Below are positions 1,908 through 55,991 of a stretch of DNA of 64,000 nt, in pieces. Origin of the DNA: Dictyostelium discoideum. Taxonomy: Eukaryota. The stretch covers positions 4,320,001 through 4,384,000 of the forward strand of contig CM000150.2 of the NCBI GenBank assembly GCA_000004695.1. The letters run 5' to 3'. Each line of letters begins with the position of its first letter. Positions within the stretch are counted from its first letter, which is position 1. The notes beneath the pieces were generated by a model. The model made no database searches, was not told the origin of the DNA, and saw only the letters and a program-made list of their open reading frames with translations. The position numbers and the translations under genes were made by a program.

Positions 1908-3986
1908 TTATTTTTGAATTAAAAATAATTCATCTAATTCAGATTTTGTAACAGTAGCAGGTGAAGAAGTCATTAATTCTTTACCACCAGAAGTTTTTGG
2001 AAAAGCAATAACATCACGAATTGAATTTGAATTTACTAATAGTGAACATAAACGATCAAAACCTAAAGCAATACCACCATGTGGTGGACAACCCATTGAA
2101 AGTGCAGTTAAAAGATGATTGAAACGTTGGACCATGTGTGGTTCCAATTTTAATACTTTTTCTAAAACACGTAATTGTACATCAGAGTTATGAATACGAA
2201 TTGAGCCACCACCCAATTCAACACCATTTATAACGATATCATAATGTTGGCCTCTAATCTTTGAATAATCAGATGGAGTTGATAATGGATTTAACAATAG
2301 ATCAATATCCTCTGGATGAGGAGCTGTGAATGGATGATGGGTTGATAATAGTGCTGATTGTTCATTCATGTAATCTGATGGAGTGAATAATGGGAAATCT
2401 ACAACCCACAAGAAATTGAATTGTTGTGGATCTAATTTTAATAAATTCAACTCTTTTAATAGATTTGCACAATAAATTCTAGTTTTACCAAGTGTTGATT
2501 CAACTTGGAATCTTGGACCAACACTAATTAATAAAACATCACCTTCTTTTAAATTCATTCTTTCAGTGATTAAAGTCTTTTCTTGTTCCGATATACTCTT
2601 TGAAATTAAAGATTTCCATTCATTATTTGATTTAATTTGTACAGTGATTATTGAATTTGATTCTGTAGTGATTTGATCAAGATGTTTGGATTTTAAAGTT
2701 GGTAAAACTTGATCTAATTTTATGCATTTAATGACAGGTTTAGATTCTTTGAAATTGTTTGATGCTTGAGATAATGCATTTTTAAATAGATTAATATTAG
2801 TTTCATCCTTATTGAAACAGTCTGTAATATCGACGAGTTTCATGTCATAACGAGTGTCAGGCTTATCAATACCATAGGTTGATAGAACTTGCTCATAGGT
2901 GTAGAATGGGAACTCATAGTCAATGTTGAAACCAGCCTCTTTCCAAAGTGTTTTAACCAATCCTTCAATGATACGATAAATCATTTGAGTATTTACAAAT
3001 GAAAGTTCCATATCGATTTGAGTGAATTCAGGTTGTCTATCTGAACGTAAATCTTCATCACGATAACAACGTGCCAATTGGAAATATCTGTCAATACCAC
3101 CTACCATAAGTAACTGTTTATATTGTTGGGGTGACTGTGGCAAGCTGTAGAATTGGCCTTGGTGTCTGGTTGGCACCAAATACTCTCTTGCACCCTCTGG
3201 TGTTGGTCTAAAGAGTGTTGGTGTTTCAACTTCAATGAATTGTTGATTGATTAAATAGTTTCTTGCTGCCATTGCTACCTTTGATCTTAATCTGATATTA
3301 CTTTGAACTTTGTCTCTTCTCAAATCAACATAACGATACTTTAATCTTAATTCCTCAGATACCGCAGTTGAATCATGTTCCACTGTAAATGGTAAATCCA
3401 CACAATTATTCAACAATTGTAATTGGTCAACTGAAATTTCAATTTCACCAGTTGACATATTCTTATTTACCATACGTTCTGGTCTTGCTATAACTTTACC
3501 TTTAATTGAAACAATTGATTCTAATTTAAAAAGTTTAATATTCTCTTCAATACTATTACGCTCATTTATATCAATATTTGGAACACTTGATTTTAATATA
3601 CATTGTTGTTTTAAATCAACATAACATTGAACTTTACCATGTCCATCTCTAATCACTAAAAATACGTTATCTCCTAAATTTCTTAATGAATTAATCCAAC
3701 CATAAATTATAACTTCTTTACCAATATCTTTACTTGTAATTTCACCACATGAATGACTTCTTTCAATAATATTTAAAATTTTATTATTTATATTTTCATT
3801 TTTATTATTATTTATGGTATTTGTAAAATTTCTTTTATTAAATTGATTAATTTGTTGATTTTTTATTATCGATGTGGTTGATGAAGTTGTGATATTTAAT
3901 AATGATAAACAATTTTTGTTTTTAATTATTGGTTTATTTAAAACATTTAAAAATATTTTAGAATCTTTTAATATTACTCGATTCAT
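1908..3986 (-). CDS. maspS: Aspartyl-tRNA synthetase, mitochondrial-type (bacterial-like class IIb), single exon, 692 aa
   Basis: Continuous ORF with ATG at 3986. Class II aaRS motifs are present: FRPTPEGAREYLVP, GGIDRYFQLARCYRDEDLRSDRQPEFTQIDMELSF, GGGSIRIH, GLAxGxDRL. An N-terminal OB-fold follows a basic Asn-rich presequence consistent with mitochondrial targeting. Confidence 0.9.
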   Translation of the reverse strand: MNRVILKDSKIFLNVLNKPIIKNKNCLSLLNITTSSTTSIIKNQQINQFNKRNFTNTINNNKNENINNKILNIIERSHSCGEITSKDIGKEVIIYGWINSLRNLGDNVFLVIRDGHGKVQCYVDLKQQCILKSSVPNIDINERNSIEENIKLFKLESIVSIKGKVIARPERMVNKNMSTGEIEISVDQLQLLNNCVDLPFTVEHDSTAVSEELRLKYRYVDLRRDKVQSNIRLRSKVAMAARNYLINQQFIEVETPTLFRPTPEGAREYLVPTRHQGQFYSLPQSPQQYKQLLMVGGIDRYFQLARCYRDEDLRSDRQPEFTQIDMELSFVNTQMIYRIIEGLVKTLWKEAGFNIDYEFPFYTYEQVLSTYGIDKPDTRYDMKLVDITDCFNKDETNINLFKNALSQASNNFKESKPVIKCIKLDQVLPTLKSKHLDQITTESNSIITVQIKSNNEWKSLISKSISEQEKTLITERMNLKEGDVLLISVGPRFQVESTLGKTRIYCANLLKELNLLKLDPQQFNFLWVVDFPLFTPSDYMNEQSALLSTHHPFTAPHPEDIDLLLNPLSTPSDYSKIRGQHYDIVINGVELGGGSIRIHNSDVQLRVLEKVLKLEPHMVQRFNHLLTALSMGCPPHGGIALGFDRLCSLLVNSNSIRDVIAFPKTSGGKELMTSSPATVTKSELDELFLIQK

Positions 3987-4264
3987 TTTTTTTTTTTTTT
4001 AAAAACAAAATAAATTGTTGAAACGAACGAAATGGTTGAATTTTATTTTTTTTTTTTTTTTTAATCACCCAACATTTTTTTTTTTTTTTTTTATTTTGAT
4101 TTTTTTTTTAATTTATTTATTTTTTTTTTTTTTTTTTTTTGGGAAAATTTTACTGAATTTGTGAATTCCCACATCATAATAATTATGTGTAATCCCAATG
4201 AATTTTACCAGGATAATAATGATTTTAATTAAATATTAATTATATTAATAATAAAAATAATAAA

Positions 4265-4270
<6 letters not shown>

Positions 4271-4343
<73 letters not shown>
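4271..4343. repeat. (AAT)n microsatellite
   Basis: Seen directly. It produces the spurious poly-Tyr ORF 4245..4448. Confidence 0.9.
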
Positions 4344-4345
<2 letters not shown>

Positions 4346-4793
4346 TAGTTTTTAAGTTATTTAAAAAAAAATAATATTTATGGGTTGCTTCAATAAATAA
4401 AAAACATAAAAAAAAAAAAAAAAATTCAAAATGTTTGGAAACAGACATAAATCAAATAAATAAATAATTTTTATTTTCCCACACAAAAAAAAAATTATTT
4501 AAAAATTTACTTTAATTATCTTTTTTTATTAAATCGCCGATTCTTCTGATTAATTTTCTGATTTAATTATTTTTTTCTTTTTTCTTTTTTCTTCATTTAA
4601 TTTTTTTATTTTTTTTATTTTTCCAATTTAAAATCTTCATCGTTACATATCTCATCTGCATTAATAAATCGATTTTTGAGAAACTCATCAATATGTTTTA
4701 AACTTTCCCTAAACTTTATAATCCTCTTTTTTTATTCAACATTTTTTTTTAAATCATTGATGATTCAATCCTGAAATGTATGGCGGTATTCCA

Positions 4794-4830
<37 letters not shown>

Positions 4831-5332
4831 TTAAATATAAAAATAATAAAAATAATAGTAATAATGATAATAATAAAAAATTAAAATAAAAAAATTAAAA
4901 AATAATAATAAATAAAAAAAAAAAAATAATAATAATAATAATTTAAAAAAAAAAAAATTAATATTAATTAATTAATAAAAGATAAGATAAATATATATAT
5001 ATCTTTTTTTTTTTTTTTAGAGTTGTTATTATCATCATCATCATCATCATCATCATCTCAATTTTTTTCTTTTTATGTTATGTATCTATATTGTGTTTTA
5101 AATCTCATGGGGGTCACATAGCATCATGATCAAATAAATTAAAATAAAAAAAAAAAATTAAAAGGGTATTTTTAAAAAAAAAACAAAATAAAATAAAATA
5201 AATAAAAAAAAAAGTAAATTAAAAAAATATTAACAATGTTATAAGATTCAGATTTGTCTAGTTTGGAACAATTATAATAATCAAACAATTAATTTTTATT
5301 GTCAAAAACATTCCCACACCCAATCAAACACA

Positions 5333-5366
<34 letters not shown>

Positions 5367-6131
5367 CTAAAATTATAACATGCCATTATTTTTATTTAAA
5401 AGTTATATTAAAATAATTCCTTTATTTAGGTCTTTCTTAATTTAAAAAAAAAAAAAATTCCTTTTTTTTTATTTTATTTTTTTTTTTTATTTATTTTTTT
5501 TTTTATGATTGTTGACACAATCGTACAAAAAATATGAATATATTTTTGTTTTTATTATTATAATGATATCAATAATTAATTAATTATATAATTAAAAAGA
5601 AAAAAAAAAAATAATAATAATAATAATAATAAAAAAGATTTCGAACTGGTATGATGATCAAATTTAATTTAACCCACTACCACTTATATATAACTACCAA
5701 CCACAGAATTGGAATATATATATACATATATCTATTTTTTTTTTAATTTTATTTTAATTTTTTTTCCTTTTTTTTCTTTTGTGGAATTACCCACACAATA
5801 TTGTGAATTAACCACACTCACTCACTCTCTATCATATCAACTACCTACTGTTGTTGTTCCCACCCAACCAAATTAATTTTTGAGTTAGTGAGGGTGGGTA
5901 TATGTTTTTTATTTTTAATTTTTATTTTTTTTTTATTTTTTTTTTATTTTCATTTTGTTGGAAAGATGGTAGTTTGTGTGTGTATGTGCCTCAAAAAAGT
6001 AAAATAATAAGTTTTTTATACACTCCCCTAATATATTAAAAAAATTGGTTATACAAATATACACCCACACTCTCTCAAACACACACTCTATTTTTTTTTT
6101 ATTCATTTAATTATATAATAATTATTTAATC

Positions 6132-6168
<37 letters not shown>

Positions 6169-6626
6169 CTAAACTAAATTAAAAAAAAAATAATAATAAA
6201 ATAATAAAAAAAAAAACATTAATTAATGGGTTTGTTGTAATTCTGTTAATTATTAAATAAATTAAATAATAAATAGTAACAATAAAAAAAAAAATAATAA
6301 AAATAATAATATCATCTCAATAAAGTTCATATATTAAAAAAAATAAAATAAAAAATAAAATAAAATAATTTAATTTAATTTAACATTGGCATTTATTATA
6401 TTATATTTTTTTTTAATTTATAATAAGCGCAGTGTCATATTTAACCAATTAATAGTATAAAATAATTTTTTTTTTTTTAAAAAAAAATAAATTTATAATT
6501 ATAAATACAATAACAATATAATTAGTATAGATAATCAAAAAAATCTTTAAAACAGTTGGTTTACTTTTTTTTTTTTTTTTTTTTAATTTCTTTATTTATT
6601 TGTTTTATTTTTTTTAACAAATATTG

Positions 6627-17916: not shown

Positions 17917-18637
17917 ATGAATGTTCAAAGAATTATAGGAGTTTGTGGATTAAATGCATCTGGTAAAAGTACAATTTGTAATTTTTATAAGAATAAAGGA
18001 TTTACTGTAATCTCATTATCTGATATAATAAGACAAACATTAAAAGAAAGAAATTCACCAGAAACTAGAGATAATTTAATTAATCTTGGAAATGAATTAA
18101 GAAATAGTAAATATCATAATTATTAATTATACTCAATTTTTAGAAAATCAATAATAAAATTAACCAATAAAGAATAATAAAATAATAATAATAATTATAA
18201 TAATATTATAAAATTAAAATTTATCATTAAAAAAAAGAGAAAGTGGTGCAGGAGTTTTAGCAAATTTAACAATTGAAAAATTAAATGAAAATACAAATTA
18301 TGTAATTGACTCAATTAGACATCCAGATGAAGTTACTTGTTTTAGAAATAAATTTAATAAAGATGGAAATAAAGTATTCAATTTAATTGGTATTGATAGT
18401 TCCGCAGAGAGTAGATTTCAAAGAACACAATCGAGAAAAAGAGAAGGTGATACAACAACTTTAGAGGAATTTATGTCTGTTGAAAAAAGAGAAATGAATA
18501 ATCCTGATCCAAAAGGTCAACAAGTTTCAAAGGTTTTAGAAATGTGTGATTATAAAATTTCAAATAATTTAGAACAAACTTTAGATGGTTTATTAAATGA
18601 ATTAAATAATTTAGAAATTAAATTAATTAAAAAATAA
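17917..18637 (+). CDS. Small P-loop nucleotide/nucleoside kinase-like protein (AAA_33/dephospho-CoA-kinase-like fold), about 200 aa; exons 17917..18106, 18240..18637
   Basis: Walker A is IIGVCGLNASGKST. The donor is AAATA|GTAAAT (phase 1) and the acceptor aaaaaagag|AA. The joined protein reads ...LGNELRNKSGAGVLANLTIEKLNENTNYVIDSIRHPDEV...RFQRTQSRKREGDTTTLEEF (LID-like Arg cluster). Substrate is unknown. Confidence 0.5.
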
Positions 18638-18907
18638 TTAATTTAATGAAATTAGTAAATAAAATAAGAATTTCCAAACAAGTTAAAATTTTTTTTTTTA
18701 TGAATTGGATAATTTTTGATGTCCTAAACAGTTAAATAAATTCTTTTTTTTTTGTGTTTTTTTTTATTATTCATTTCATTCTTTTTTTTTTTCTGGATGT
18801 GTCATTTTCAATAATTTTGCAATAAAAAACTTTTTTTTTTTTTTTTTTTTTTTTGAATTGCAATAAAAAACCCCTTTGAGCTATTTTTTTTAAAATTTCA
18901 TCGATCA

Positions 18908-18981
18908 GTTCGGATGGTGTAGTCGGTTATCACGAATCCTTAACACGGATTAGGTCGTGGGTTCGATTCCCGCTCTGAATA
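18908..18981 (+). tRNA. tRNA-Val (anticodon AAC)
   Basis: Cloverleaf readable. Acceptor GTTCGGA/TCTGAAT with two G-U pairs. Anticodon stem AATCC/GGATT with loop TTAACAC. T-arm GTGGG TTCGATT CCCGC (B box GGTTCGATTCC). Discriminator A. T5 Pol III terminator at 18993..18997. Confidence 0.85.
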
Positions 18982-19020
18982 CAAACAAACAGTTTTTAGA
19001 TATTGATGAATAGAATCGCA

Positions 19021-19031
19021 GGCTCGATTCC
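19021..19031 (+). promoter_or_regulatory. Extra B box (ex-B) about 40 bp downstream of the tRNA-Val gene
   Basis: GGCTCGATTCC is a one-mismatch copy of the intragenic B box GGTTCGATTCC. Such downstream ex-B boxes are characteristic of Dictyostelium tRNA genes. Confidence 0.4.
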
Positions 19032-19529
19032 CATAGTTGAAAGTAAATATCTAACATTTAGTTTATTATATATCTAATTAATTAATCATTAAAAAATATA
19101 AATATACATTCATAATTGGCCCATACTACTTTATTACCATTTTCATTTTCTTATAAACAACTGCCTAAATTATGATTTATTTGGGTTAAAAAATAAATTA
19201 AAAAAAAAAAAAAAAAAAACATTTTTATACACTGATATATAAATACAAACATTTCCATCCTCTTGAAGTATAAGTGGTTATCATATGTCCTGGTTATTGT
19301 AATAGTGAAATATTTAAAAAAATAAAACAAAATTTATTATTCTCATACAAATTCAATTATTTTAGTGGTAATTATTATTTTTGTCTTTGATTTATAGAAT
19401 TGTTGTGATTAGTCAATAATTTCTAATAAATTTTTTTTTTTATTTTTTATATACAATTAACTAATAAACTTAACAAGATTTTAATTTACAAAAAAAAAAA
19501 AAAAAAAAAAACCATTATTTTCCCAATTG

Positions 19530-20174
19530 ATGATCGGTAGTCCACAATCGTTGCCATTGGGATTGGGAGTTGGTGGATCAATGTTGTCCTTAATACTTTG
19601 CAATATGCAACAACCTACATATACAACTTATGACACCATTTGGGATGGTCCATTGGATTATAGTGTAAAGAAACCAATTTTAAAAAGTGTTGATAAAAGT
19701 GGTAAAAGTGTAATAGAGTTTGAAGAATTCAGTAAATCGGTTATACCAATTACAGTTGCCAATTATTCAACGTTACATAAAATGGCATTCGTTTCATTTT
19801 GTGTATTCAATGGAATTTCACTATCACCCGCTTTCGGATTACTCCCAGTATCTACAGTTTTGGGGGTCGCAGCTTTAAGTGTATTCGTTACTGGTGGTAG
19901 TGCTTTTGCTGCATTAAAGATGAAACCTGATAGTTTAACCAAATATAAACCAATACTCTATGGTAGCTTGTTTGGTCTTTTCGGATTGGGTTTGGTTTCA
20001 ATTGGTACTTCAATAATGATGGGTGAGAATACTTTCACCCATTTCGCTCAAGAGTTTGATCTCTATTTTGGTCTTGCTTTATTCACTGGTTTAACTGCTT
20101 TAGATACAATGCTGTCAAAACTTTTCAAGAGGGTAAACCAGATAACATTAGAGTTTCAATTGATCTATTTTTAG
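19530..20174 (+). CDS. Small multi-pass transmembrane protein, about 214 aa, family unknown
   Basis: ORF with a local GC rise and coding codon usage. About 4 predicted helices (FVSFCVFNGISLSPAFGLLPVSTVLGVAALSVFVTGG; ILYGSLFGLFGLGLVSIGTSIMM; YFGLALFTGLTALDTML). The true ATG is at 19530 (the track start is TTG). It may lack upstream exons. Confidence 0.45.
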   Translation: MIGSPQSLPLGLGVGGSMLSLILCNMQQPTYTTYDTIWDGPLDYSVKKPILKSVDKSGKSVIEFEEFSKSVIPITVANYSTLHKMAFVSFCVFNGISLSPAFGLLPVSTVLGVAALSVFVTGGSAFAALKMKPDSLTKYKPILYGSLFGLFGLGLVSIGTSIMMGENTFTHFAQEFDLYFGLALFTGLTALDTMLSKLFKRVNQITLEFQLIYF

Positions 20175-20227
20175 ATATTTTAAATATTTTTGTTAGACTT
20201 TTAAGAGCTAGATAGCAATAAGTAACC

Positions 20228-20267
<40 letters not shown>

Positions 20268-20830
20268 CTGTAGATAAAAAAAAAAAAAAAAAAAAAGAAA
20301 TAAAAAATATGGTATTAAAATTTGTAAATAAATAAAGTTGTAATTAAATTTAATCAAATAACAAATTTTATGGAAGAAGATATTTTCCAATTTTTTAAAA
20401 AACAAACAAAAAAAAAAAAAAAAAAAAATAAAAATTATTATGGATGCCAAAAATTGTTGGTTTATAAAATATTTTAAAAATTTTTTATCTTGGTTTAATT
20501 TAAATAATGTTTTGAATTGGTTTTATTAAAAAAAAAATTATTTTTTATTTTCAAAAGTTACATATAATTTTTTTTTTTTTGTTTTAAAATTAAAATGATT
20601 ATTTTAAAAAGTTTAAAGAAATTATCATGTGATTATTTTAAAATTAAATCAAAATAAAAGATATTTATTTTTTAAAAATATCTTTTTCGTCAAAAAAAAA
20701 AAAACCGTCGTTTGTGTAAAAAATAGAAAAAGGACATTATTTTTTAAAAAAAAAAAAAAAAAAAAAAAAGCATTTAATACATTTCGATAAAATTCAAAAT
20801 CAGAAAAAAAAGCTACCTTTTTAACAAAAA

Positions 20831-22379
20831 ATGACAGAAAAATATAAGGTAAACTTTTTTTATATTTTATTTTTATTTTATATTTTAAATTATAATTTCA
20901 ATGTTGTAATTTCAATTTTTCCAACATCATTTTCTCAAATTAATTCAACAAATGGGTTTTTAATATCAGAAGGCAGAAGTTTAATTTCAATTACACATGG
21001 AGACTTGAACGGTGATGGTAATGATGATTTGATATATGCTAAACATTCAGAAGGACTATATGTATTTTATGGGCCATTAGCAAGTAATTTTGATTTTCAA
21101 ACAGACATATCAAAAATCAACGGTTCAAATGGTTTTATTTTTTTAAATACTACTGTTCTAATGTATCGAATAGCTGTTGGTGATATAAATAATGATGGAT
21201 TTGACGATATTGCTTTTTTTTTAAATATTATGCCAGGAAAACTTTGTGTTATCTATGGTACTGATCAAATTATATCACCTTCTACTTTTTCCACAGTGAA
21301 TGGTAATAATGGTTTCTATATTTCTCACGTTTCGTCCTCTAATATTGCATTTGGGCTTGTAAGATCAATCATTGATTTCAATGGTGACTCAATTAAAGAT
21401 TTATTTGTAGGTACATATTTTTTTTATTTTTTTATTTTGTTTTAAAAGTATTGTTGTTAATACAACACATATTTTTTTTTTTTTTTTTTTTTAGGTCTCT
21501 GCAAGTATAGGAACTTATGTAAGTACAGGAACACCAATTTCATATATGATATTTGGTATAAACGGTGGTAAATTTCAAGTTAATTCACAATTTGAATTTG
21601 ACCCTTCAACATTAAATGGGAGTAATGGTTTTTTAATTAATAATTTCAATTCATATGCGGCTTATCCTTATGATATGAATAATGATGGGATTGGTGATAT
21701 AATTATAAATAGGGGACATATAGCAATCGATATTATTTATGGTAGCAGAGGTCCTTTTACCTCACCATATATCCCAGTTTATGATGGTGTCAAAGGTACC
21801 AGTTTCAGCTTTTTAGGTTGCTCAACAAATTATAATGCTCTTCCAAATGCTTTTGGAGATTTTAATAATGATGGACTAAATGATTTTGGTGTAATTTATT
21901 CTTTATTATTTTTTGATTATTCTTATTCTTTATTATCCTTTATTGTTATTATACTAATTTTTACATTTTATTAAATAATTTTAGATTCTTACAAAACATA
22001 CTTCGGGTGACTATATAGCTTTTTTGGTTTGGGGTAAAACAGAATATCCACCAACAACAACATTAAGTATAAATCTAAATCCATCGGATGGTTTGGTTAT
22101 AGCAGTTATTGGCAACACCTATAACTGGGCTTTTTCTCCTAGGTTAGGGGATATAAATAATGATGGATTTGCAGATTTTTTAATCAATGGTAACACTGAC
22201 CTCCCATTCACCATTTTGTATGGTAATAATAAAAATTATGCTTCAAATCCAATTTATTTAAAAGATCAAGTTGGTGATTGTTCAAAAATGTCAATTAATG
22301 GCTATGCTGAGGCTATTGATATTGGTGATTATAACTCTGATGGTATTGATGATATTGTAAGTAATATTATATTAAATCA

Positions 22380-22459
<80 letters not shown>

Positions 22460-24152
22460 CATTATTTTTAACTTTTAAATAACTCTATTCTATCAGACAG
22501 CAGCTATATTAGCAACAGGTTCATATTTAGATATTTATACAATATATGGTCAAACTTCGATTGGTTCAATTTCAATAATTAGTAAATTATTTCAACCAAA
22601 TCCAATGTCAAACTCAATTTATAAATTATTTGAAAATAATATTAATTCAGAAGTTGGACAATGCGCAATTAGAATTGTTACATTAACAATTGAAAATCCA
22701 GCAAATGAAGATCAATTTATTATTAATCCTAGTTTCGATAGTTCAATATATTCAATAACATTTAATAATAATACAAGAGTTAGAATTGAATTAATATTAT
22801 TTGGTGATGAGAGTAAATCAATTGCAAATGATGTTTTACCAAAAATAACAGTTTCATTGTCACCTCAGCTATTTAATAGAACTATATTAATGAAATATGG
22901 TAATCAAGTACAATCAATTAAATTCATTGGTCAACCAAATGCAAATTGTGATACAAAATGTTTAAATGGAGGTACTTGTAATCCACTCACTGGTTGCCAA
23001 TGTATAAATGATCATTATGGTGATTATTGTGAATTAAAAGATTGTACAGTTCCACAATGTTTAAATGGTGGTTCATGTAATACAACAGTTGGTGAATGTT
23101 CATGCACTCAAGGTTATGAAGGTACGGATTGCAGTGGTATTAGTTGTTCAGCTTCATGTTCAAATGGTGGTTCATGTAATACTACAGTTGGTGAATGTTC
23201 ATGTCCTCAAGGTTATGAAGGTGTAGATTGCAGTGGTATTAGTTGTTCAATTTCATGTTTAAATGGTGGTTTATGTAATACTACAGTTGGTGAATGTTCA
23301 TGTATTAATGGCTTTTATGGTGATGATTGTGATACAAAGGATTGTACAGTTCCACAATGTTTAAATGGTGGTTCATGTAATACTACAGTTGGTGAATGTT
23401 CATGCACTCAAGGTTATGAAGGTATAGATTGTAGTGGTATTAGTTGTTCAGTTTCATGTTTAAATGGTGGTTTATGTAATACTACAGTTGGTCAATGTCA
23501 ATGTATAAATGACTTTTATGGTGATAATTGTGGTACAAAGGATTGTGCAGTTCCACAATGTTCAAATGGTGGTTCATGTAATACTACAGTTGGTGAATGT
23601 TCATGCACTCAAGGTTATGAAGGTATAGATTGTAGTGGTATTAGTTGTTCAGTTTCATGTTTAAATGGTGGTTCATGTAATACAACAGTTGGTCAATGTC
23701 AATGTATAAATGACTTTTATGGTGATAATTGTGGTACAAAGGATTGTACAGTTCCACAATGTTTAAATGGTGGTTCATGTAATACTACAGTTGGTGAATG
23801 TTCATGCACTCAAGGTTATGAAGGTATAGATTGTAGTGGTATTAGTTGTTCGGTTTCATGTTTAAATGGTGGTTTATGTAATACTACAGTTGGTCAATGT
23901 CAATGTGTTGAAGATTATGATGGCGATGGTTGTGGTTCTGATAATAAAAAGAAAACAAATATTGGTGTTATCATTGGCCCAATTCTAGGTGGTCTTGCAC
24001 TAATTGCAATTATTGTTGTTGCAATTGTTTTAATTAAAAAGAAGAAGAATGGAAATTCAAAAAAAAATACAAATAACATTGAATTAAGACCTCAAGGTTC
24101 CACTGTTGATATTCAAATGGGTGGTAGAATTAAAAATCTTGATAAATTTTAA
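20831..24152 (+). CDS. Type I membrane protein with an FG-GAP (integrin-alpha-like) beta-propeller followed by about 10 tenascin-type EGF repeats, a TM helix and a short tail, about 1000 aa; exons 20831..21406, 21495..21890, 21985..22356, 22497..24152
   Basis: The four track ORFs join in phase 0 via GTAGGT/GTAATT/GTAAGT donors and ttag/tttag/tatcag acceptors. There is an N-terminal signal peptide. Repeated Ca-binding FG-GAP motifs are present: GDLNGDGNDDLIY, GDINNDGFDDIAF, DMNNDGIGDII, GDFNNDGLNDFGV, GDINNDGFADFLI, GDYNSDGIDDI. The EGF modules repeat CLNGGSCNTTVGECSCTQGYEGxDCSGISC. TM is IGVIIGPILGGLALIAIIVVAIVLI. The (TTA)n tract 22381..22459 is intronic. Confidence 0.75.
22381..22459. repeat. 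(TTA)n microsatellite in intron 3 of the FG-GAP/EGF gene
   Basis: Seen directly. It generates the spurious poly-Leu tail of ORF 22024..22482. Confidence 0.9.
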
Positions 24153-24455
24153 ATTTAAAAAGAGATTATTTTAAATCAATTCTGTTGTATTATTATTGTT
24201 TTTTACTTCCAAAAAAAAAAAAAAAAAAAATTTTTGATCAAAATGATTATAATAAAAACCGCAGGGGTTATTTTTAAAAATAATTTGAAAAAATTCAGTG
24301 ATTTCATTTTATTATTATTTTTTTTTTTTTCTTATTTTTTTTTTTGTTTTTTTTTTTTTTTTTTTTTAATAATTTTGTAAAATAAAAATAACTCTTATAA
24401 ATTACATGTTGTATTATTATTTTAAAATTTGTAAATAAATAAATAAATAAATAAA

Positions 24456-24493
<38 letters not shown>

Positions 24494-24497
24494 ATAC

Positions 24498-24548
<51 letters not shown>

Positions 24549-25086
24549 TGATGGGAAAACTAATTTTATCATGGGGTGGATTTTTAAAAAAGATGATTTT
24601 GTCCTAGGTTGGATTTAGAATGGCAATTAAAAAATATTTAATTTTTTTAAAAAAAATTGGTTTAATAATTAATGAATTATATTGGTTGTTTTATAATATT
24701 TTTTTTTTTTTTTTTTTATTTTTTATATCATCATTTAAATTTAATTTCTCTATTGGTTTTCAATAACGTTATATATGTATTGGAAATTCAAACAAGTATA
24801 AAAATTAAATTAAAAGAATTTTATTTTATTTAAAAAAATCTTATTAAAAATTTAAAAAATATCTGAAAATCCAACACACTCCCATTTTATTTAAAATTTA
24901 ATTTTATTTGTTTATTATTTATTTAAAATAAGTTTTTTGTAATGAATTAAAAAAAAAAAAAAAAAAAAAAAATATTACAAAATAAATTGAATTTTTTTTT
25001 TTATTTATTAATTATTAATAAATTTTTAAAAAATATAAAACTTATTTTGTTTAAAAAGAAAAAAAAAAAAAAATAATCAAATTATT

Positions 25087-29738: not shown

Positions 29739-30289
29739 CAGATTTTTATCTTATTAAACAGTGCACAAACACTTCAATTAAATTTAAAATTTAAAATTAA
29801 AAAAAAAAAAAAAAAAAAAAAATTTCATTTTTTTTTTTTTTTTTTTTTTTTAATATTACAAAAATTAAATCATAATATTTAATTTTAAAATAAATATTTA
29901 TTTGGTATTAAAAATTGAAATAATGGTTCCAAAATAAATTTTAATATTATAACTTTAAAAGACTTATTTATTTATTTGTGTTTGGGGAAAATAAAAAAAA
30001 AAAAAAAAAAAAAAAAAATGAAAATAAATAATATTAACTGTATAATTTTTTTATTCTTTTTTAATTTTATCTTAAATGTAATAAACTCAATATTTCTTTT
30101 AAACTTTTATTTTATTTTATTATTTTAAAAAAAAAAATTAATATCTTTTCCTTTTATCATTTCAATAAATTAGAATTTAGCCCTTTTTTAAATATTCAAT
30201 TTTCAAAGGTTATAAATATATTGTATATAATTTCAAAGAAATTATCAATAACATCAAATGACCAATAACAATAAAGTCAAGTTAAAAAA

Positions 30290-30320
<31 letters not shown>

Positions 30321-30713
30321 CTCTATATTTTTTAAATTAATTATAAAAGCCAGATATCGAATACAATTAAACTCCAAATTAATAAAAAAAGAATCTTTCG
30401 ATTCTAAAAAATCGATTAACCTTATAATCACTATAGATATTTAAAATAAAATTAAATACCTAGCAAAGATTTGTGAAATTTATTTTCAACTTGCACCAAA
30501 TTGTCAAAGATTGGATTTTTTTTTTTTTTTTTTTTTTTTTATAAAATATATTATTTTATTTTGAAATATTAAAATATTAATAAAAAAAAAATAAAAAAAA
30601 AGAAAAAAATCAAAAAGTATGGATTTTTTTTTTTATTAATTATATTTTACTAATACATAAAAAAACCAATTTAATTTTATTACATTTTAATTCAAATAAT
30701 AAACAAAAAAAAA

Positions 30714-30986
30714 ATGGCCAAATGTGAAGCTTGTGGTGGTATTGCATCTGTTACTTGTGGTGTAACTGGTTGTGGAAATAAAGGATGTCTTAATTGTCCA
30801 TATATGACAGCAGTTTCAAGATTTACAAATACTTTCAATGCAAGAAATGTTACAAATACAATTAATCGTAATTCTCCATTCGGTGCAAACATGTCAAATA
30901 CTATGTTTGAATGTGGCGATTGTAGAAATGCTTCCAACACCTCTTCTTCCAACAACTCCACTTCATCTTCTTCTGATGACTCTTAA
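30714..30986 (+). CDS. Small Cys-rich protein, 90 aa, copy 1 of a tandem pair
   Basis: ORF with locally raised GC and ATG in good context. Eight Cys arranged CxxC-x7-C-x4-C-x4-C-x2-C ... CxxC. The Ser/Asn tail ends in acidic residues. It is 85-90 % identical to the copy at 32624..32878. The antisense ORF 30692..30961 is an artefact. Confidence 0.5.
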   Translation: MAKCEACGGIASVTCGVTGCGNKGCLNCPYMTAVSRFTNTFNARNVTNTINRNSPFGANMSNTMFECGDCRNASNTSSSNNSTSSSSDDS

Positions 30987-31275
30987 TAAAATAATAAATT
31001 AAACTCCAAATAATTCCATATTAATAAAAAATAAAACTAACTTGGTTATACTATTTAAAAAATTAACAAAAAAAAAAAAAAAATTTAAAAAAAAAATAAA
31101 CAAAAACTAGAATTTTTTATTAAAATTAATAATGTTTTTGGAAATAAATTAATACTTTTATTTATAAAGCAATAAAAAAAAAATGAAAAGGTTTTTATTT
31201 TTTCATTTTTTTTTTATTTTTTTTTTTTAATTTTTATTTTTTTATTTTTTTTTTTTTTCCCTAATAGCGCCACTT

Positions 31276-31365
31276 GGTGGTGCAACGTTGCGATATTCAT
31301 TAAATTTTGACTCTAAAACGATTTCTTTGAAAATTAATATCGCAACGTTGCACCAAAACAAAAAA
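31276..31365. repeat. Perfect 20-bp inverted repeat (TGGTGCAACGTTGCGATATT ... AATATCGCAACGTTGCACCA) with about 47-bp spacer; predicted long hairpin about 290 bp downstream of Cys-rich gene copy 1
   Basis: Seen directly. The arms are exact reverse complements. The GC content is unusual for the flanking sequence. Each arm contains a palindromic AACGTT core. The homologous site in copy 2 (about 33105..33175) keeps only a mutated left arm. Confidence 0.7.
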
Positions 31366-32623
31366 TCTCCATTGATTTCCAAAATAATTATTTTAATTTT
31401 TTTTTTTTTTTTTTTTTTTAATTTAATTGGTGGGTATTATTGGTTGGTTCAATTTCAATTAAAAAAACACTAAAAACTAAGAAAAAAAAAAGGCACCTAT
31501 TAGTGAATGATTTTATTTTATTTTTTTATTTTTAGCTTTGTAGTTTTTTAAATTTATTAATATTACCTTATAATTTCTTAATATTAGCGGAATCATTTTA
31601 CAGGATTAAAACAACTTTTTTTTTTTGTTTTAATTTTATTTAATTTTTTAAATTTGTTGAACTTGAGGGATAAATACATCGGTCCCTCTTTGAAATACTT
31701 GACGATCATGCGAACGAAGAACATCACTATCTCTTTGAGAATCTTCTTTCCAAGCTTCAAATATTTAGTCTACAAAATATTTAAATAATATTTATTCCAC
31801 CATTGTATATATTTTTGTTACCCCTTTTTTTTTTTTTTATTTTTATACACAATTGCAGGGATGTGTATTCATGATAAATTTAATTTTTCAAAAAGAAGGA
31901 AGTTGTAGATCATTTGCTGTTATTCGTGAACTCATAACCGGTCAAAAATAATAAAAATCTTTTAAAAAGGAAGAAATAATATTTTTATTTATATTTTCAA
32001 ACTTTTTTTTTTTTTTTTTTTTTGGTTTTGTTTTTTGTTTTATTTATAATAATTTTTAATTTTTACATTGATTTTGACCCACATATATAATGTTCACTAT
32101 GATTTTGAGAAAAATTAATATCTTTTCCAGTAATCAATTCAATAAAATAAAATTTAGACCTTTTCCAAATATTCAATTTTCAAAGAAATTATCATTGACA
32201 TCAGATGACCAATCACAATAAATTCATCAAAAAAACCCATTTTTTTTTTTTTTTTTTTTTTTATAAAAGCCAGATATCGATTCCAATTAAACTCCACATA
32301 AAAAAAAAATTTGTTGATTCTAAAAAAAAATGATTAACTTAACTTATAATCACTAAAGATATTTTATATATATAAAAATAAATTAAATACCTATCTAAGA
32401 TTTATGAAATTTATTTTCAATTTGCACCAAATCGCCAAAGAATGGATTTTTTTTTTTTTTTTTTTATTTTGAAATAATAAAATATTAATAAAAAAAAAAA
32501 AAAAACAACAAAATCAAAAAGTATAAATAACTGGATTTTTTTTAAATTTTTTATATTTTACTTATACTTTTATAAATTAATTTAATTTTATTACATTTTA
32601 ATTCAAATAATAAGCAAAAAAAA

Positions 32624-32878
32624 ATGGCCAATTGTGAAGGTTGTGGTGGTACTGCCTCTGTTACTTGTGGTGTAACTGGTTGTGGAAATAAAGGATGTCT
32701 TGGGGCTGATTGTTCATTCATGACAGCTGTTTCAAGATTTACAAATACTTTCAATGCAAGAAATGTTACAAATACAATTAATCGTAATTCTCCATTCGGT
32801 GCAAACATGTCAAATACTATGTTTGAATGCAGTGATTGTAGAAATGCCAACTCTTCTTCATCTTCTGAAGACTCATAA
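32624..32878 (+). CDS. Small Cys-rich protein, 84 aa, copy 2 of the tandem pair
   Basis: Paralogue of 30714..30986 (MANCEGCGGTASVTCGVTGCGNKGCL...TAVSRFTNTFNARNVTNTINRNSPFGANMSNTMFEC). About 400 bp of upstream and 300 bp of downstream flank are conserved. Confidence 0.5.
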   Translation: MANCEGCGGTASVTCGVTGCGNKGCLGADCSFMTAVSRFTNTFNARNVTNTINRNSPFGANMSNTMFECSDCRNANSSSSSEDS

Positions 32879-33247
32879 AAATATTAAACTTCAAATAATA
32901 ATTCCATATTCACAAGAAATAAAACTAACTTGGTTATACTATTTAAAAAATTAATTAATATTAATTAATAAAAAAAATAAAAATAAACAAGAAGTAGAAT
33001 TTTTTATTAAAATTAATTTTTAATTATGTTTTTGGAAATAAATTAATACTTTTATTTATAAAGAAATAATTTTTTTTATTTTTATTTTTAATTCCTTAAT
33101 ATCGCCCCACTTGGTGGTAAAACATTGCGATATTCATTAAATTTTGACTAAAACGATTTCTTTGAAAATTATTGTTTCTTTTTTTTTTTTATTTAAATAA
33201 ACAATAAAAAAAACTTCTTGTCAAATCTAGATTGATTTCCAAAAAAA

Positions 33248-33294
<47 letters not shown>

Positions 33295-34336
33295 ATTGAT
33301 GGATATTATTTGTTCAATTTCAATTAAAAAATACTAAACCCTAAAAAAAAAAAAAAAAAAAGCGCCTAATGGTGAAAGATTTTTTATTTTTAGCTTTCTA
33401 GTTTTTTTTTTAAAAATTTAATATTGCCTTATTATTTTTTAATATTAATCACAGATTAAAACAAAATTGTTGATTGTTTCTATGACATTCATCATAATAT
33501 TTATTATTGATTATTTGAATTTGAAAATCACAGTTGATTACCTAAAATTATTTAATTCTAATTTCTTTTTTTTTTTTTTTTATTTTTAAATTATTTGTTT
33601 TTTATTATTATTCCATTCTTTTTGTTTTGATACTTACACATTAAGTGAAATTTAGGAATGAAAACAAAAAAAAAAAAAATTAAAAAAAGTATCTTTTCAC
33701 TTTTTTATTTTTTTTTTTTTTTAATTTCACTTTTTTTATTTTTTTTTTATTTTTTATTTTTTTTTTCGTCAATTGAATCTTAATTTTATTTCTTTATTTG
33801 AACAGATTTTAAAAAAAAAAAAAAAAACAAAATAAAAATTTGAAATTTAAATTATAATAATAAAAATTAAAATAAAATTGATTTTCAATTGAAATTAATT
33901 GAAAATAAATCGTATTACAACAACAATAATAAAACCAAATAATATTATAAAAAAAGAAAAAAAAATTAAAAAAAAAATTTAAAAAAAAAAAAAATTAAAA
34001 GAAATAAAAAATAAAAAATAAAAAAATTTTAATATTAATGTTAATGTCACTATTATTTTTATTATTAAATTTGATTTGAATAATAAAAAAAAAAAAAAAA
34101 AAAAAAAATTAAAATAATAAAAATAAATTTTCAAAAAAAAAAAAAAAAACAAAATAAAACAAAAAAAAAAAAAAAATATAAATAAATAAATAAATAAATA
34201 ATATATATATATATAATAATTTAAATGTTACTTTATTATTTTTATTATAACCAATTACTACTATTATTATCATCAAAAATATTAAAAATCTTTTAAAAAG
34301 GTAGAAATTGTAAATATTATTTTTATTTTTAAACTT

Positions 34337-34368
<32 letters not shown>

Positions 34369-34997
34369 TTTTTGTTTTGTTTTTTGTTTTGTTTTTTGTT
34401 TTTTGTTTTATTTATAATATTTTTTAATTTTTACATTTTATTTTAACCCACATATATAATGTTCACTATGATTTAGAGGAAAATGTATAAAAAAAAACTA
34501 TAAAACATACATTATATGTAATTTCTCTCCCACAATTTTCAATGTGTTTTTACATTTTTAAATTTTTAATTTTTTTTGTTTTTTTATTGAAATTGAAATA
34601 AAAGAATAATAGTTATCCACCACTTACCCACCACACATTAACACTAAAAAAAGGTATGTCTTTTTTAAAGACAATGCATAGAGTTTCGGAAATTTTGTTA
34701 AATTATAATTTATTTTAATAAAATTAAATAAAATAGAATTTTTAATGTAAAATAATAAAATTTAAATTGATGTTACTCATAGTATTAAAATTTTTTTTTT
34801 TTTTTTTTTATTTTTATTTTTTTATTTTAATTTATTAATTTTATTTTATTTTTTTTAAACTAAAAAAAATAATAAAAAATAATAAAAATAATTTCAATCT
34901 AAAAAAATTAATTATAATAAATATAAATATTATAATATTATAATATAAATTAATAATAATAATAAAAAAAACTAAAAATGTAAGAATTAATTAATTA

Positions 34998-35053
<56 letters not shown>

Positions 35054-35305
35054 ATATTTTATTTAATAATAAGATTTTATATTTTCAATTAATTATAATC
35101 AAAATTATACAATTAAAAAAAAAAGAAAATTTACTCAATATGGAATAATTGCAACACATTTAACCACTTTCACACTCGTTTTTTTTTTTTATTTATTTTT
35201 TATAAAAAAGTTTTATTGTATTTTTATTTGTGTACAAAATCAATGTAGTTTACCCGTACCCAATATTTTTATATGTTTATAATTTTTAATAATAATAATT
35301 TAACA

Positions 35306-35342
<37 letters not shown>

Positions 35343-35700
35343 AAATTAAAATAAATAATTAAATTTTATTGTTAAATTTTAATTATTATGGTGATATAAT
35401 AATGTGTGGTTGTATTTATTATTTTTAGTGTGTGATAGAAAAAATGAAATCTATTTGTTTTTTTGTAAATCTCAAAATTATTAAAATTTTTATAATTTTA
35501 TAATTTTAATTTTGGGTTTATTTGTTTTTGTTTTTTTTTTTTGTTTTATTTTTTTTTTTTTTTTTTTTTAGGGCTTGGTTTATGATAATAAAAAATATTA
35601 ATAATAAAAATAATAATAATATAAATAATTATAAAAAATATTACCTTTGTGGTCCATTTACTTTTGCGAATTTCAAATAAATGTATTAATGTGTAAAAAT

Positions 35701-35744
<44 letters not shown>

Positions 35745-35969
35745 GTTTAAAGTGGAGTTTTAATATGTTACATTAATTACTGTTTTAAAATTTTGTTGTT
35801 GTTTTTGTTCTTAATTGTTATGATAAATGGTTTAAAAAATACATTTATTACCTGTTTATTTTTCAATGTTATTATATATGTTAAAAAAAAAAAAAAAAAA
35901 AAAAAAACAAAAAAAAAAAAAAAAAAAAAATTATTAAAAAAAAAAAAAAAAAAATATTAAAAAGTTAAA

Positions 35970-36002
<33 letters not shown>

Positions 36003-36103
36003 GTTAAAAAAAGATACCAATTAATTCAATAAAATAATATTGTTTGTTGTTATCATATCAAAAAATAATAATATACTTAATAATAACAATAAAATAATAT
36101 TAC

Positions 36104-36158
<55 letters not shown>

Positions 36159-36269
36159 GTTTTAATATTAAAAATAAAAATTATATGTATAATAGTAATA
36201 AAAATAGTAACAATAATTTTAAATTTTAATTAAATTTAAATAATTAAATAATTAAAAATAAAATAAAAG

Positions 36270-36301
<32 letters not shown>

Positions 36302-36678
36302 ACCTTAATCAAATTAGGGAAATTGTTTATCTTTGTTAAATAGGATATTTGTTTTTTTTTGTCCAAAATTTTATATAAACATTTTTATTATATTTTAGAA
36401 TTCTTCTAACAATTTTAAATAAAAAAATAAATATAAAAAAAAAAAAAAAAAAAAAAGAATTATAGCCAAAAAGATTGAAAACAACTAATAAGGAAAAAGA
36501 AAAAAAAAATAAAAGAAAAAAAAAAAAAGAAAAAAAAAATAATAGAATTTTAATTTATTCTAATACTCAATAAACTTTTGTTAAAATACTATTTATTAAA
36601 TTAAAAAACAAAGAAAAGAATAAAAAAAAAAATTAAAAAAAAAACAAAAACAAAAACAACAAATATTATTTATAAAAA

Positions 36679-38223
36679 ATGATTGATGATTCTTTAGCAA
36701 ATGTTTGGCAATTAATACCAACACGTAGATCACAAATGATCATAAACTATCAACAAGAGGTTATCCATTCTCCAACACCAATTGCCTCAATATCAAATAA
36801 AAATGATACAAATCAACAATTACAACCACAACTACAACCACAACAACCACAACAATTATCACCAAATGTTGATCAACATATGCAATTGGAACAACAATTA
36901 CATTACCAATTACAACAACAAGCTTTACAACAACAACAAGCTTTGCAACAACAACAACAACAACAACAACAAATACAACCATCATCAATTATTTCAACAA
37001 CACAAGAAACAACCGGATTTTTCCCAGTTGAAAGACATGGTCATACAACTTGTTTATATAAAAATAAAGTGATTTTATTTGGTGGTACACCTGATGGTTC
37101 ACATGGTTTAAGTGATTTATATTTTCTTTATTTAGGTAATTATTTTTATAATTATTTAAAAAAATAATTTATAAAATTTAAAATTATTAATTTATTTTTT
37201 ATTTTTTATTGATTTTTTGAAGATACATATTCTTGGGTTGAAATTAAAACAAAAGGAAATGCACCAAATGGTAGATATAGACATAGTGCAATTATAATAG
37301 AAGATAAAATGTATATATTCGGAGGATATAGGTCAAAATGTTTAAATGATTTACATGTATTAGATTTAGAGACATTTACATGGTCAGAACCAATTTGTAT
37401 TGGAGAAGCACCATCGGCACGTTCATCACATTCAGTTTGTTGTGTTGGAAAGATGATGATATTATTTGGAGGTAGTGGAGCACGTTACTCTAATGAATTG
37501 TTTTCATTGGACACTGTTACGATGCGTTGGACTAAACATGATGTATTGGGAACACCTCCCTCAGAGAGATGGTGTCATACAATGTGCAGTTTCGGTAAGA
37601 AGGTGGTTACATTTGGTGGCTCAAACGATAAGAGAAAAGATAATAAAGTTTATATATTGGATACCGATACGATGGAATGGTCGCAACCTCCCACCTCTGG
37701 AAACTGTCCAATACCCAGACAGTTGCATACTGCAGTGGCAATCGGCGAGAGTATGATCGTTTTCGGAGGCTGGGGTAAACATCAGGAATTGAATGACCTC
37801 TACATACTCAATACTCGTACTATGAAATGGGTTTGTCCAAAGATTGACAATGTCATACCTTGTTGTCGTCAACTTCATTCCGCTTGGGTATACAATGGTA
37901 AAATGTATACTTTGGGTGGCTATTTTAAAAACAAAAGAATGATCGATGTTTATTGTTTCACACCCGAACAAACCGTTTCAACTCTACGTGAATTTTGTAT
38001 TGAAACCATTGTCGAAGATGTTTTCAAATATGTACCAATGTTTAATCATTTCCCAGAGGAAATACTATATCAAATTTTCTCAAGATTATCTCAAGCTGGA
38101 AAATTAATACCACTTCAATTGGATTATTTAATTAGAAAATCTTATTTAGCCGACCAAGTTGCTTTAGTTTTATCTACCAATAAGAATGGTGGTACAATTG
38201 AAGAAACTCCAAATCCAATTTAA
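36679..38223 (+). CDS. Kelch-repeat (6-blade beta-propeller) protein with Gln-rich N-terminus and C-terminal helical region; exons 36679..37135, 37223..38223
   Basis: Donor TTAG|GTAATT (phase 1); acceptor ttttgaag|AT. Kelch blades: HGHTTCLYKNKVILFGG, RYRHSAIIIEDKMYIFGG, RSSHSVCCVGKMMILFGG, RWCHTMCSFGKKVVTFGG, RQLHTAVAIGESMIVFGG, RQLHSAWVYNGKMYTLGG. The segment 37460..37980 has GC far above the rest of the gene. Confidence 0.75.
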
Positions 38224-54821: not shown

Positions 54822-55991
54822 GGATATTCATTGTAATTATTTTAATTTAATTATTCTAATTTAAAATTCTAATAGAATTGTTGGTACCCATCACCAGTAA
54901 GAAGAGAGTAGGTGACAGTGGATCACTTGTTTTACTCCTGTCACTACAATAGTTTGTTTCATCTATTAAAAATCTTCATGTTACGAGTCCTTTCTGATTA
55001 TTGTTAACAATTTTTGGGAGATAGGATATTAGTTTATTATTGCTTTAGATTGGATTTTGTATATACAGTTTGCCAAAGTCATCGGCTTCCGATTTTAAAT
55101 TGATTCTTTGGAATTGTGATAATCAGCCCTTCTTTATATTGGTTTTTAATGATAAGTGGATTCTTTATTGCATCATTGAAAGTTGATGCATGAACTTTGT
55201 TGTTGTAAATAGATTGCTCCTAAGGTATTTTCCCAGAGGAAGACCATTGGTATGATGCAATGGTCCATTGAGTCAACAAATTGGATGATTTAGAAATGCA
55301 CAAGAAAAATAAAAGAATTTAAAAAATGGACAGTTGACGAAGGTTTTCTTTGAATGTAAGGAAATGTGAGAATTGCTGTAAGGTCAACTTATTTGTTATT
55401 CACATCTACAAATTATATATAAAATAATTTTAAAAGGAAATTATAATTTAAAAAAAACTTTATGGGATTTTATTTCTTAACCATTTTCCCCTTAATCTCA
55501 AAAAAAAAAATAAAATTTTTTTTTTTTATTCTTTGAAATTTATTTCTCAAATATTTATTAGAAAACAGATTAACATAACAAAAACATGATAGATTTAATC
55601 TATGCAAAACATGGGTTAAAAATCTAAATTTAGTAAAATAAAAATTTTTAAAATAAAAAAGTATGAAAAAATGGGAAGTTTTTAAAATTCTTAAAACCAT
55701 AAACTCAAACCTAAAATCTCAAATGTCTTTTTTTATTACCTAATTAAAAAAAAAAAAAATTTCTTATTGTAAATAATGAAACTAATATTAAGTTAAAAAT
55801 TAATATTTTATATTTGAGCAATTTATTTTTTAAAAAAAAAAAAAATTTAAAAATATTTTTAATTATTAATTATTAATTATTATTATTATTAATTATTAAT
55901 TATTGATTATTAATTATTAATTATTATTAATTATTATTAATTATTATTAATTATTTATTATTTATTAATTATTAATTTTTTTTTTTTTTTT

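Follow-up and report, generated by a model that had tools for sequence, protein, structure and literature searches.

The genomic stretch analysed in this study (hereafter the window) covers 64 kb of chromosome 1 of Dictyostelium discoideum AX4 and is strongly AT-rich. It contains a single tandem duplication that carries two copies of a gene for a small protein with eight cysteines, DDB_G0270164 (gene A) and DDB_G0270166 (gene B). Both genes are switched on within 1–2 h of starvation, gene A being the dominant copy and gene B a weakly expressed, co-regulated paralogue. The encoded proteins form an orphan family, the cysteine pattern of which is covered by no curated profile. As far as the searched collections show, this family is restricted to D. 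discoideum and Dictyostelium firmibasis. We regard the reality of the gene and the core of the duplication model as nearly certain.

Both genes had been annotated previously, as hypothetical only, and they are unnamed in published tables. Their gene, protein and UniProt identifiers are absent from the text of papers, the data being given only in supplementary tables. Both genes, along with their expression values, are public, and neither has been named or studied by anyone. The coordinates of all features of the duplicated region are summarised in Table 1; the initial annotation mentioned there is an earlier description of the window that was made from the sequence.

Table 1 Features of the duplicated region, with positions in the window
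Feature	Position	Strand	Description	Basis
Gene A, DDB_G0270164 (XP_646592, Q55C89)	30714..30986	+	90 aa, single exon	exact database match
Gene B, DDB_G0270166 (XP_646594, Q55C87)	32624..32878	+	84 aa, paralogue of gene A	exact database match
Duplication unit 1	30133..32107		~1.98 kb; body U (30133-31613), spacer S, H1	blastn, MAFFT, junction alignment
Duplication unit 2	32108..34484		~2.38 kb; body U' (32108-33470), spacer T, H2	blastn, MAFFT, junction alignment
H1	31936..32115		end element of unit 1; "far-upstream flank" of copy B in the initial annotation	three-way alignment
H2	34270..34484		end element of unit 2; "third partial copy" in the initial annotation	blastn and three-way alignment
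Spacer S	31614..31935		unit 1 only; G+C-richer, 22-29% G+C; coding-like 3-base periodicity	
Spacer T	33471..34269		unit 2; ~0.8 kb, low-complexity, 3-17% G+C	
Inverted repeat	31278-31297 and 31336-31355		perfect, 20 bp, tggtgcaacgttgcgatatt / aatatcgcaacgttgcacca; 38-nt loop; downstream of gene A	

The two gene copies

The two open reading frames (ORFs), estimated in the initial annotation to be 85–90% identical, were both found where they had been placed, and their products share 66 of 75 residues in a BLASTP alignment (88%, E = 3e-46). The cysteines of the gene A product occupy the positions C4, C7, C15, C20, C25, C28, C67 and C70. They are laid out as a CxxCG knuckle (residues 4–8), a C-x4-C-x4-C-x2-C cluster and a CxxC knuckle (residues 67–70), and the protein has a C-terminal tail of Ser, Asn and Asp. 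The spacing CxxC-x7-C-x4-C-x4-C-x2-C...CxxC, which had been ascribed to both proteins, describes copy A correctly; copy B has x4 at the sixth cysteine, owing to a 6-nt insertion. Gene B is thus distinguished from gene A by two additional codons ahead of Cys6, and also by a shorter tail. The G + C content of gene A by codon position is 0.31/0.59/0.19. Coding copies beyond genes A and B were not detected in the window by tblastn. The exact database matches of both genes also bear out the dictyostelid source assumed in the initial annotation.

Antisense open frames of 89 and 99 aa overlap both genes (30692–30961 and 32551–32850, both on the minus strand) and use GTG/TTG starts under the bacterial code. 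These frames are by-products of the codon composition of the sense strand and not separate genes.

Architecture of the tandem duplication

The self-comparison of the region that the initial annotation had recommended was performed with dust-filtered blastn and yielded the collinear blocks 30133–30208/32110–32185, 30231–30315/32178–32262, 30341–31175/32261–33069, 31237–31336/33071–33171 and 31388–31586/33257–33447. Identities of all blocks range from 80 to 88%, with 81.5% over 866 nt for the block that starts at 30341, and the collinearity of both units was also seen in a MAFFT alignment. No comparable copies of the duplicated-unit sequences were found by blastn elsewhere in the window. The region thus shows what is expected of a tandem segmental duplication: two direct units side by side, homology that is collinear in coding as well as in noncoding DNA, and one novel junction. 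The blocks and the junction bear out the earlier claim of a tandem duplication that carries a real small eight-cysteine gene. The unit size of about 1.9 kb proposed at that time agrees with the offset between the copies (1.91–1.98 kb), but only about 1.35–1.48 kb per unit can be aligned.

The sequence at 32003–32115 recurs at 34369–34484 with 90.5% identity over 116 nt (blastn, E = 2e-37). A three-way alignment was prepared from the sequence before unit A, the stretch comprising the spacer, H1 and unit B, and the stretch comprising H2 and its downstream sequence. In this alignment, the homology between H1 and H2 was found to reach back to about 31936/34270 and to run up to ...GATTT[T/A]GAG[A/G]AAAAT; the (T)nG microsatellite of H2 is expanded. 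For the stretch preceding unit A, similarity to H1/U' begins only at AAAAATTAATATCTTTTCC. The two regions of homology adjoin to within a few bases, in poly-A microhomology at about 32105–32110, which places the junction within ...GATTTTGAG/AAAAATTAATATC... (the slash marks the junction) and indicates one tandem duplication of a segment that starts at about 30133 and ends with H. In each unit, the gene is located near the 5' end and H at the 3' end. The flank described earlier as a third partial copy does recur at 34369–34484, but as the 3' tail of unit 2, and the units number two, not three. Ahead of unit A, the three-way alignment shows no copy of the far-upstream flank. With this and the other small corrections, the observations of the initial annotation hold.

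These observations indicate a single recent tandem duplication in the D. discoideum lineage, which occurred after the split from D. firmibasis. The duplicated segment of about 2 kb spanned the gene, the intergenic DNA 3' of it and element H; its breakpoints are near 30133 and 34484, with the junction near 32107. The suggestion of a rapidly duplicating family is not borne out, as D. firmibasis has just one copy and D. discoideum a single duplication.

The noncoding flanks of the two units show a substitution identity of 85.2% and 241 gap columns, and dS, the synonymous divergence, between genes A and B is 0.137, which is about the same distance. At the syntenic D. firmibasis locus (L001), the flanking genes align at 74–88% nucleotide identity. 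The interval with the small gene (window 29894–37137 compared with L001 7780–14452) gave no alignment between the species, and no flank elements were detected at that locus or in other parts of the window (word size 7, low-complexity matches filtered). With an identity at the neutral expectation and an absence from D. firmibasis, the flanks are conserved because the duplication is young and not through function. The conserved flank motifs quoted in the initial annotation are indeed present in the MAFFT alignment and are explained in the same way.

Selection and lineage range

The core of the coding sequence (CDS) is 94.5% identical between the copies, compared to 85% in the flanks. Both ORFs are intact (273 nt in gene A, 255 nt in gene B), and 6-nt and 24-nt indels leave a net difference that is in frame. 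The ratio of nonsynonymous to synonymous divergence (dN/dS, omega) between genes A and B is 0.31, with 7 nonsynonymous and 6 synonymous differences (Nei-Gojobori; Fisher p = 0.04). For the C-terminal half the value decreases to 0.06 (1 nonsynonymous vs 4 synonymous differences, p = 0.007). Since synonymous differences are present, the conservation of this half reflects selection and not gene conversion. The pattern of substitutions shows purifying selection.

Among 1.84 billion representative proteins, searched exhaustively with a HMMER profile, one true relative besides the query cluster was recovered, a protein of 76 aa (P0004, E = 2e-11), which was identified as RB653_006708 of D. firmibasis in a word-index search. 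Its gene is syntenic, lies downstream of a Sec23/24-like gene and is the sole copy within ±10 kb. The protein shares 45% identity with the D. discoideum products and keeps 8 of 8 cysteines as well as the motifs VTC..V..CGN..CL and RNSP.G. In comparisons with this orthologue, omega is 0.3–0.46, at a dS above 1. Neighbouring ORF pieces (n = 9) are 65–98% identical between the two species, as opposed to 45% for the small protein; the gene therefore evolves far faster than its neighbours, yet keeps its scaffold. A metagenome scan for relatives of the small protein found none. The proposal that the family is lineage-specific is supported by these results, the D. firmibasis orthologue being the only true relative recovered.

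Five further profile matches (P0003, P0005–P0008) are large repeat proteins in which a FNAQ.IANT helical-repeat motif was matched many times, and weakly, to the stretch FNARNVTNT. The orthologue of D. firmibasis does not keep this stretch, and the matches were therefore treated as spurious. The stretch AVSRFTNTFNARNVTNTINR (window 30810–30870) resembles the repeat unit AVQRQLHAFNQQDIANTVWALA of P0003, P0006 and P0007; the likeness reaches E = 5e-19 through the sum of 11 weak matches and is probably a coincidence. Downstream of the orthologue, a two-exon gene of 41 aa has been called (L001 12502–12759, minus strand). It consists of low-complexity sequence (CACACA, AT runs), is apparently an artefact of ab initio prediction and has no relation to anything in the D. 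discoideum interval.

Expression during starvation

In the filter development series of Rosengarten et al. 2015 (PMC4403905, Additional file 2; raw reads of two replicates), DDB_G0270164 increased from 10/24 reads at 0 h to 192/803 at 1 h and 204/730 at 2 h. Counts then decreased to 81/497 at 3 h, 28/166 at 4 h and 8/23 at 7 h, with at most 44 reads thereafter through 24 h. The counts of DDB_G0270166 increased from 2/10 at 0 h to 57/89 at 1 h and amounted to about 40–125 up to 6 h, followed by lower values with minor later rises. In the suspension series of the same study, DDB_G0270164 increased from 80–208 to 452–6218 over the next three columns, the order of the columns being inferred from the design. 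Both genes are among the 8,040 expressed genes listed (PMC4403905).

Table S1 of PMC11367525 gives 5–10 reads per million for DDB_G0270164 at 0 h, 133–411 at 2 h and 24–82 at 4 h, with the baseline reached from 6 h. The log fold change (logFC) of the mRNA reported there is +5.93 at 2 h (adjusted p = 5e-100), corresponding to an about 60-fold increase. The protein, Q55C89, is contained in the tables of that source for the whole-cell proteome obtained by liquid chromatography–tandem mass spectrometry (LC-MS/MS; mRNA and protein values together are in Tables S1, S3 and S5), with logFC values of +4.3 to +4.7 at 2–10 h (adjusted p = 4e-4), the direction of which is uncertain (see below). No peptide of DDB_G0270166 was found among the LC-MS/MS table rows listed (PMC11367525). 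In the cell types of Kin et al. 2018 (PMC6198379), DDB_G0270164 reached 147–267 transcripts per million (TPM) in stalk, 57–70 in cup, 1–6 in spore and 18–25 in vegetative cells, and DDB_G0270166 did not exceed 1.3 TPM in any of them. As is expected of an expressed protein-coding gene, gene A has transcripts, a product detected by mass spectrometry and an orthologue in comparison with which purifying selection is seen.

Comparison with known protein families

The family, which was not recognised in the initial annotation, matches nothing known: Pfam matches stayed below threshold, the sequences of the Protein Data Bank (PDB) gave none, and the database of 1.84 billion proteins contained the one true homologue described above. 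None of the Pfam families reached the cut-off for either protein in hmmscan. The best sub-threshold match was PF23451 (Zn_ribbon_PaaD), with 15.7 bits for A and 16.9 bits for B against a cut-off of 27. It covers the C-terminal knuckle region (E = 0.005–0.012, profile positions 26–47 of 53), and neither protein qualifies as a member of PF23451. The MYND, HIT, AN1, B-box and DnaJ-CR families were not listed at E ≤ 10, a range in which the HMMER filters discard most matches above E ~0.1; the proteins have no His ligands and a single CxxCGG. They also do not resemble metallothioneins, having 8 Cys in 84–90 residues (9%), containing F and Y, and lacking C-C and C-x-C. A sequence profile search of the PDB gave no significant match, the best being the Ig domain of TIM-3 at chance level (E = 0.52). 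Other small-protein families of D. discoideum (SrsA, hssA/2C/7E) showed no similarity in the exhaustive profile search.

Resemblance is seen to zinc-ribbon or two-knuckle Cys4 mini-domains such as PF23451, which share the N-terminal CxxCG, the C-terminal CxxC, an "FG" stretch that precedes the second knuckle, the small size and the lack of a visible signal peptide. The products of genes A and B differ from Zn_ribbon_PaaD in that the score remains below 27 bits with 22 residues matched, and in that four extra invariant cysteines and a 36-residue conserved loop are located between the knuckles. The first six cysteines have a rhythm similar to that of cross-brace fingers (MYND, HIT, AN1, B-box) of the pattern C-x2-C-x7-C-x(n)-C-x4-C-x2-C, a resemblance that we regard as a lead. 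As in such fingers, there are eight residues resembling metal ligands; however, the third spacing is x4 instead of x1-2, the last ligand pair is 38 residues distant and His is lacking.

Proposed function and alternatives

On balance, we consider it fairly probable that the genes encode a lineage-restricted, fast-evolving intracellular microprotein with two zinc sites, which belongs to the immediate-early starvation response and was duplicated once, recently. The product of about 9 kDa is without an apparent signal peptide, and its eight invariant cysteines are predicted to form two Cys4 metal (zinc) sites. The predicted knuckles and the cysteine cluster would clamp the conserved 36-residue loop T.VS[RK]...R[ND]V[ST].T[IV].RNSP[FL]G, which may serve as an interaction surface. 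The peak of the mRNA 1–2 h after removal of food places the genes among those of the immediate-early starvation response. Their product probably acts as a small binding or regulatory module, stabilised by zinc, during the growth-to-development transition. The timing of expression is shown, whereas metal binding, the pairing of the cysteines and any role in the starvation response are inferred; the metal sites are suggested by the invariance of all cysteines at 45% identity, the knuckle-like CxxC ends and the weak Zn_ribbon_PaaD match. The putative sites could be either nested (a zinc ribbon with an inserted site) or cross-braced in the manner of MYND, HIT and AN1.

Several points weigh against this proposal. 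No zinc-finger family of Pfam reaches its cut-off in hmmscan, the cysteine content is just 9%, and the proteins were judged to lack a signal peptide by visual inspection and not with a predictor. Two AlphaFold2 runs on the alignment of three sequences gave values of 42.4 and 36.5 for the predicted local distance difference test (pLDDT), so that the models are unusable. With CDS cores that are 94.5% identical, short reads and peptides are possibly in part mis-assigned between the copies. The per-replicate label-free quantification (LFQ) values of Q55C89 in Table S3 of PMC11367525 are about 48 at 0–4 h and 12–20 at 8–10 h (about 48, 48, 48, 16 and 13 in order), which contradicts the positive logFC; only its detection and quantification are therefore solid. 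The mismatch, which may result from imputation, normalisation or column order, is also seen in the rows of cotA and DDB_G0295799 in Table S3. Furthermore, spacers S and T cannot be aligned, so that a duplication in one step has to be followed by insertions, deletions or a replacement. We assume that such events, or slippage, took the two spacers beyond alignment after the duplication.

A small, cysteine-rich and fast-diverging profile is typical of secreted peptides, and early starvation is the time at which Dictyostelium releases density and starvation factors. The products might then be extracellular disulfide-knotted peptides (signal or antimicrobial), exported non-classically and held together by four disulfides. 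Such a reading would fit the even number of invariant cysteines in a small protein, its rapid divergence (45% against 65–98% for its neighbours) and the several N-x-S/T sequons of the D. discoideum copies. We consider it quite unlikely, since no hydrophobic N-terminal signal is visible (MAKCEACGG...), the sequons are not kept in D. firmibasis (RDVSSTVSRNSP), metal ligands more typically show such CxxC pairs at both ends and a CxxCG knuckle, and Q55C89 is quantified in whole-cell proteomes (tables of PMC11367525). The strong, transient induction of a cysteine-rich protein within the first 1–2 h of starvation would also be compatible with a metal, redox or sulfur buffer or sensor of the metallothionein-like or Fe-S type in place of a binding module, which would sequester metal or cysteine or sense the redox state when starvation sets in. 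The N-terminal C-x2-C-x7-C spacing recalls anamorsin-type Fe-S motifs, again a lead. This role is unlikely in view of just 8 cysteines in 84–90 residues, the presence of aromatics and, unlike in metallothioneins, the lack of C-C or C-x-C runs. Moreover, no metallothionein or Fe-S family appeared in the Pfam scan at E ≤ 10, and the strongly constrained non-cysteine loop (omega 0.06) favours a specific surface over bulk buffering.

Two alternatives concern the duplicated DNA itself. The flanks could be the functional part, as a regulatory or noncoding RNA module or as a mobile element in three copies, with the ORFs as passengers. Element H (the "head") holds ACCCACAT, an imperfect motif similar to the Dictyostelium upstream sequence element (DUSE), and a perfect TCCCACAA is located at 34528–34535, the consensus and position of DUSE being taken from PMC7919456. 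However, the DUSE pattern WCCCAYAA is not enriched in the window, where it was found 8 times compared to 10.1 matches expected by chance. Rfam gave no match at the gathering threshold in the duplicated region, and at E ≤ 10 only a C/D-box small nucleolar RNA (snoRNA)-like match at 32187–32236, which lies far below the gathering score (23.4 bits vs 48; E = 0.29) and whose box-like sequences are not kept in unit A. A noncoding RNA or promoter role of the head element was rejected on these grounds. The perfect 20-bp inverted repeat at 31278–31355, a further point in favour of functional flanks, is confined to one unit. Together with the absence of flank elements from the syntenic D. firmibasis interval and from elsewhere in the window, a flank identity that equals the neutral expectation and junctions that require two units only, these results render functional flanks very improbable. 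That the ORFs are chance or decaying frames without function could be argued from their annotation as hypothetical only, the lack of a domain match and the near silence of copy B in mature cell types (PMC6198379). The initial annotation had named missing transcripts together with frameshifted orthologous loci as the signs of such frames. Instead, both copies are transcribed, DDB_G0270164 is present in the LC-MS/MS proteome, the intact D. firmibasis orthologue keeps all cysteines, dN/dS is below 1 in every comparison, and the ORFs are intact in contrast to 241 gap columns in the flanks. We regard this explanation as having next to no probability; for copy A it is already refuted.

A more far-reaching version of the two-zinc microprotein reading would be a newborn family restricted to Group 4, with a new two-metal fold that acts as an immediate-early zinc, redox or sulfur switch or sensor at the growth-to-development transition. 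We consider this version decidedly unlikely; if it were true, a lineage-specific microprotein would control entry into multicellularity.

Relation to known systems and significance

The closest functional analogue of DDB_G0270164 is srsA, a small immediate-early gene of starvation onset (Sasaki et al. 2008, as described in PMC12750705), with which it shares the expression class as characterised there. Unlike this shared class, sequence provides no relationship to srsA, as judged from the exhaustive profile search. Direct units, collinear homology, a junction in microhomology, neutral divergence and copies that differ in expression are shared with ordinary young tandem duplicates, from which the region differs solely in spacers remodelled beyond alignment. 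A recent tandem copy of an orphan gene that was annotated before is as such a routine result, and the duplication is ordinary. DDB_G0270164, however, is among the most sharply induced transcripts of the first 2 h of starvation (about 60-fold) and is detected at the protein level, while having no name, domain, or homologue outside the closest sister species. Being short, intron-less and duplicated, with eight invariant cysteines, the gene readily lends itself to knockout, tagging and metal-binding assays. It could prove to be a further component of the immediate-early starvation response, which is poorly understood, or could serve as a case of a young orphan gene recruited into a developmental programme.

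Spacers and inverted repeat

The G + C content of spacer S by phase is 0.65/0.15/0.30. On its minus strand, a frame with typical Dictyostelium codons ends with TAA (IFEAWKEDSQRDSDVLRSHDRQVFQRGTDVFIPQVQQI, followed by the stop), and on its plus strand a frame that follows an acceptor-like "ttgcag" ends with TAATAA (GCVFMINLIFQKEGSCRSFAVIRELITGQK, followed by two stops). No homologue of spacer S was found in unit 2, the rest of the window or the D. firmibasis locus by tblastn, nor in the protein database by a word-index search with the best frame. The spacer may contain fragments of exons that were captured, or a gene that is unannotated or has decayed. Between S and T, the best local alignment score was inside the range of shuffled controls. 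The inverted repeat, the core of which (GCAACGTTGC) is palindromic in itself, is complete in unit 1 only. Unit 2 has the left arm alone (33107–33171 in the alignment), so that gain or loss of the right arm must postdate the duplication.

Other features of the window

A Dictyostelium Class I RNA gene, which starts with GTTGACCTTACAGCAA, was found at 55331–55388 on the minus strand (Rfam RF01414, 54 bits). A perfect DUSE (TCCCATAA) is located at 55460–55467, about 72 nt upstream of its start. In the comparison with D. firmibasis, a synteny gap was observed at 18634–25030, where about 6.4 kb of D. discoideum sequence correspond to about 1.2 kb in D. firmibasis (L001 1673–2908). The extra D. discoideum DNA holds a tRNA-Val(AAC) gene (18908–18981), a Bax1-I-like ORF (19527–20174), an FG-GAP ORF (20831–21445) and an EGF-repeat ORF (22605–24152).

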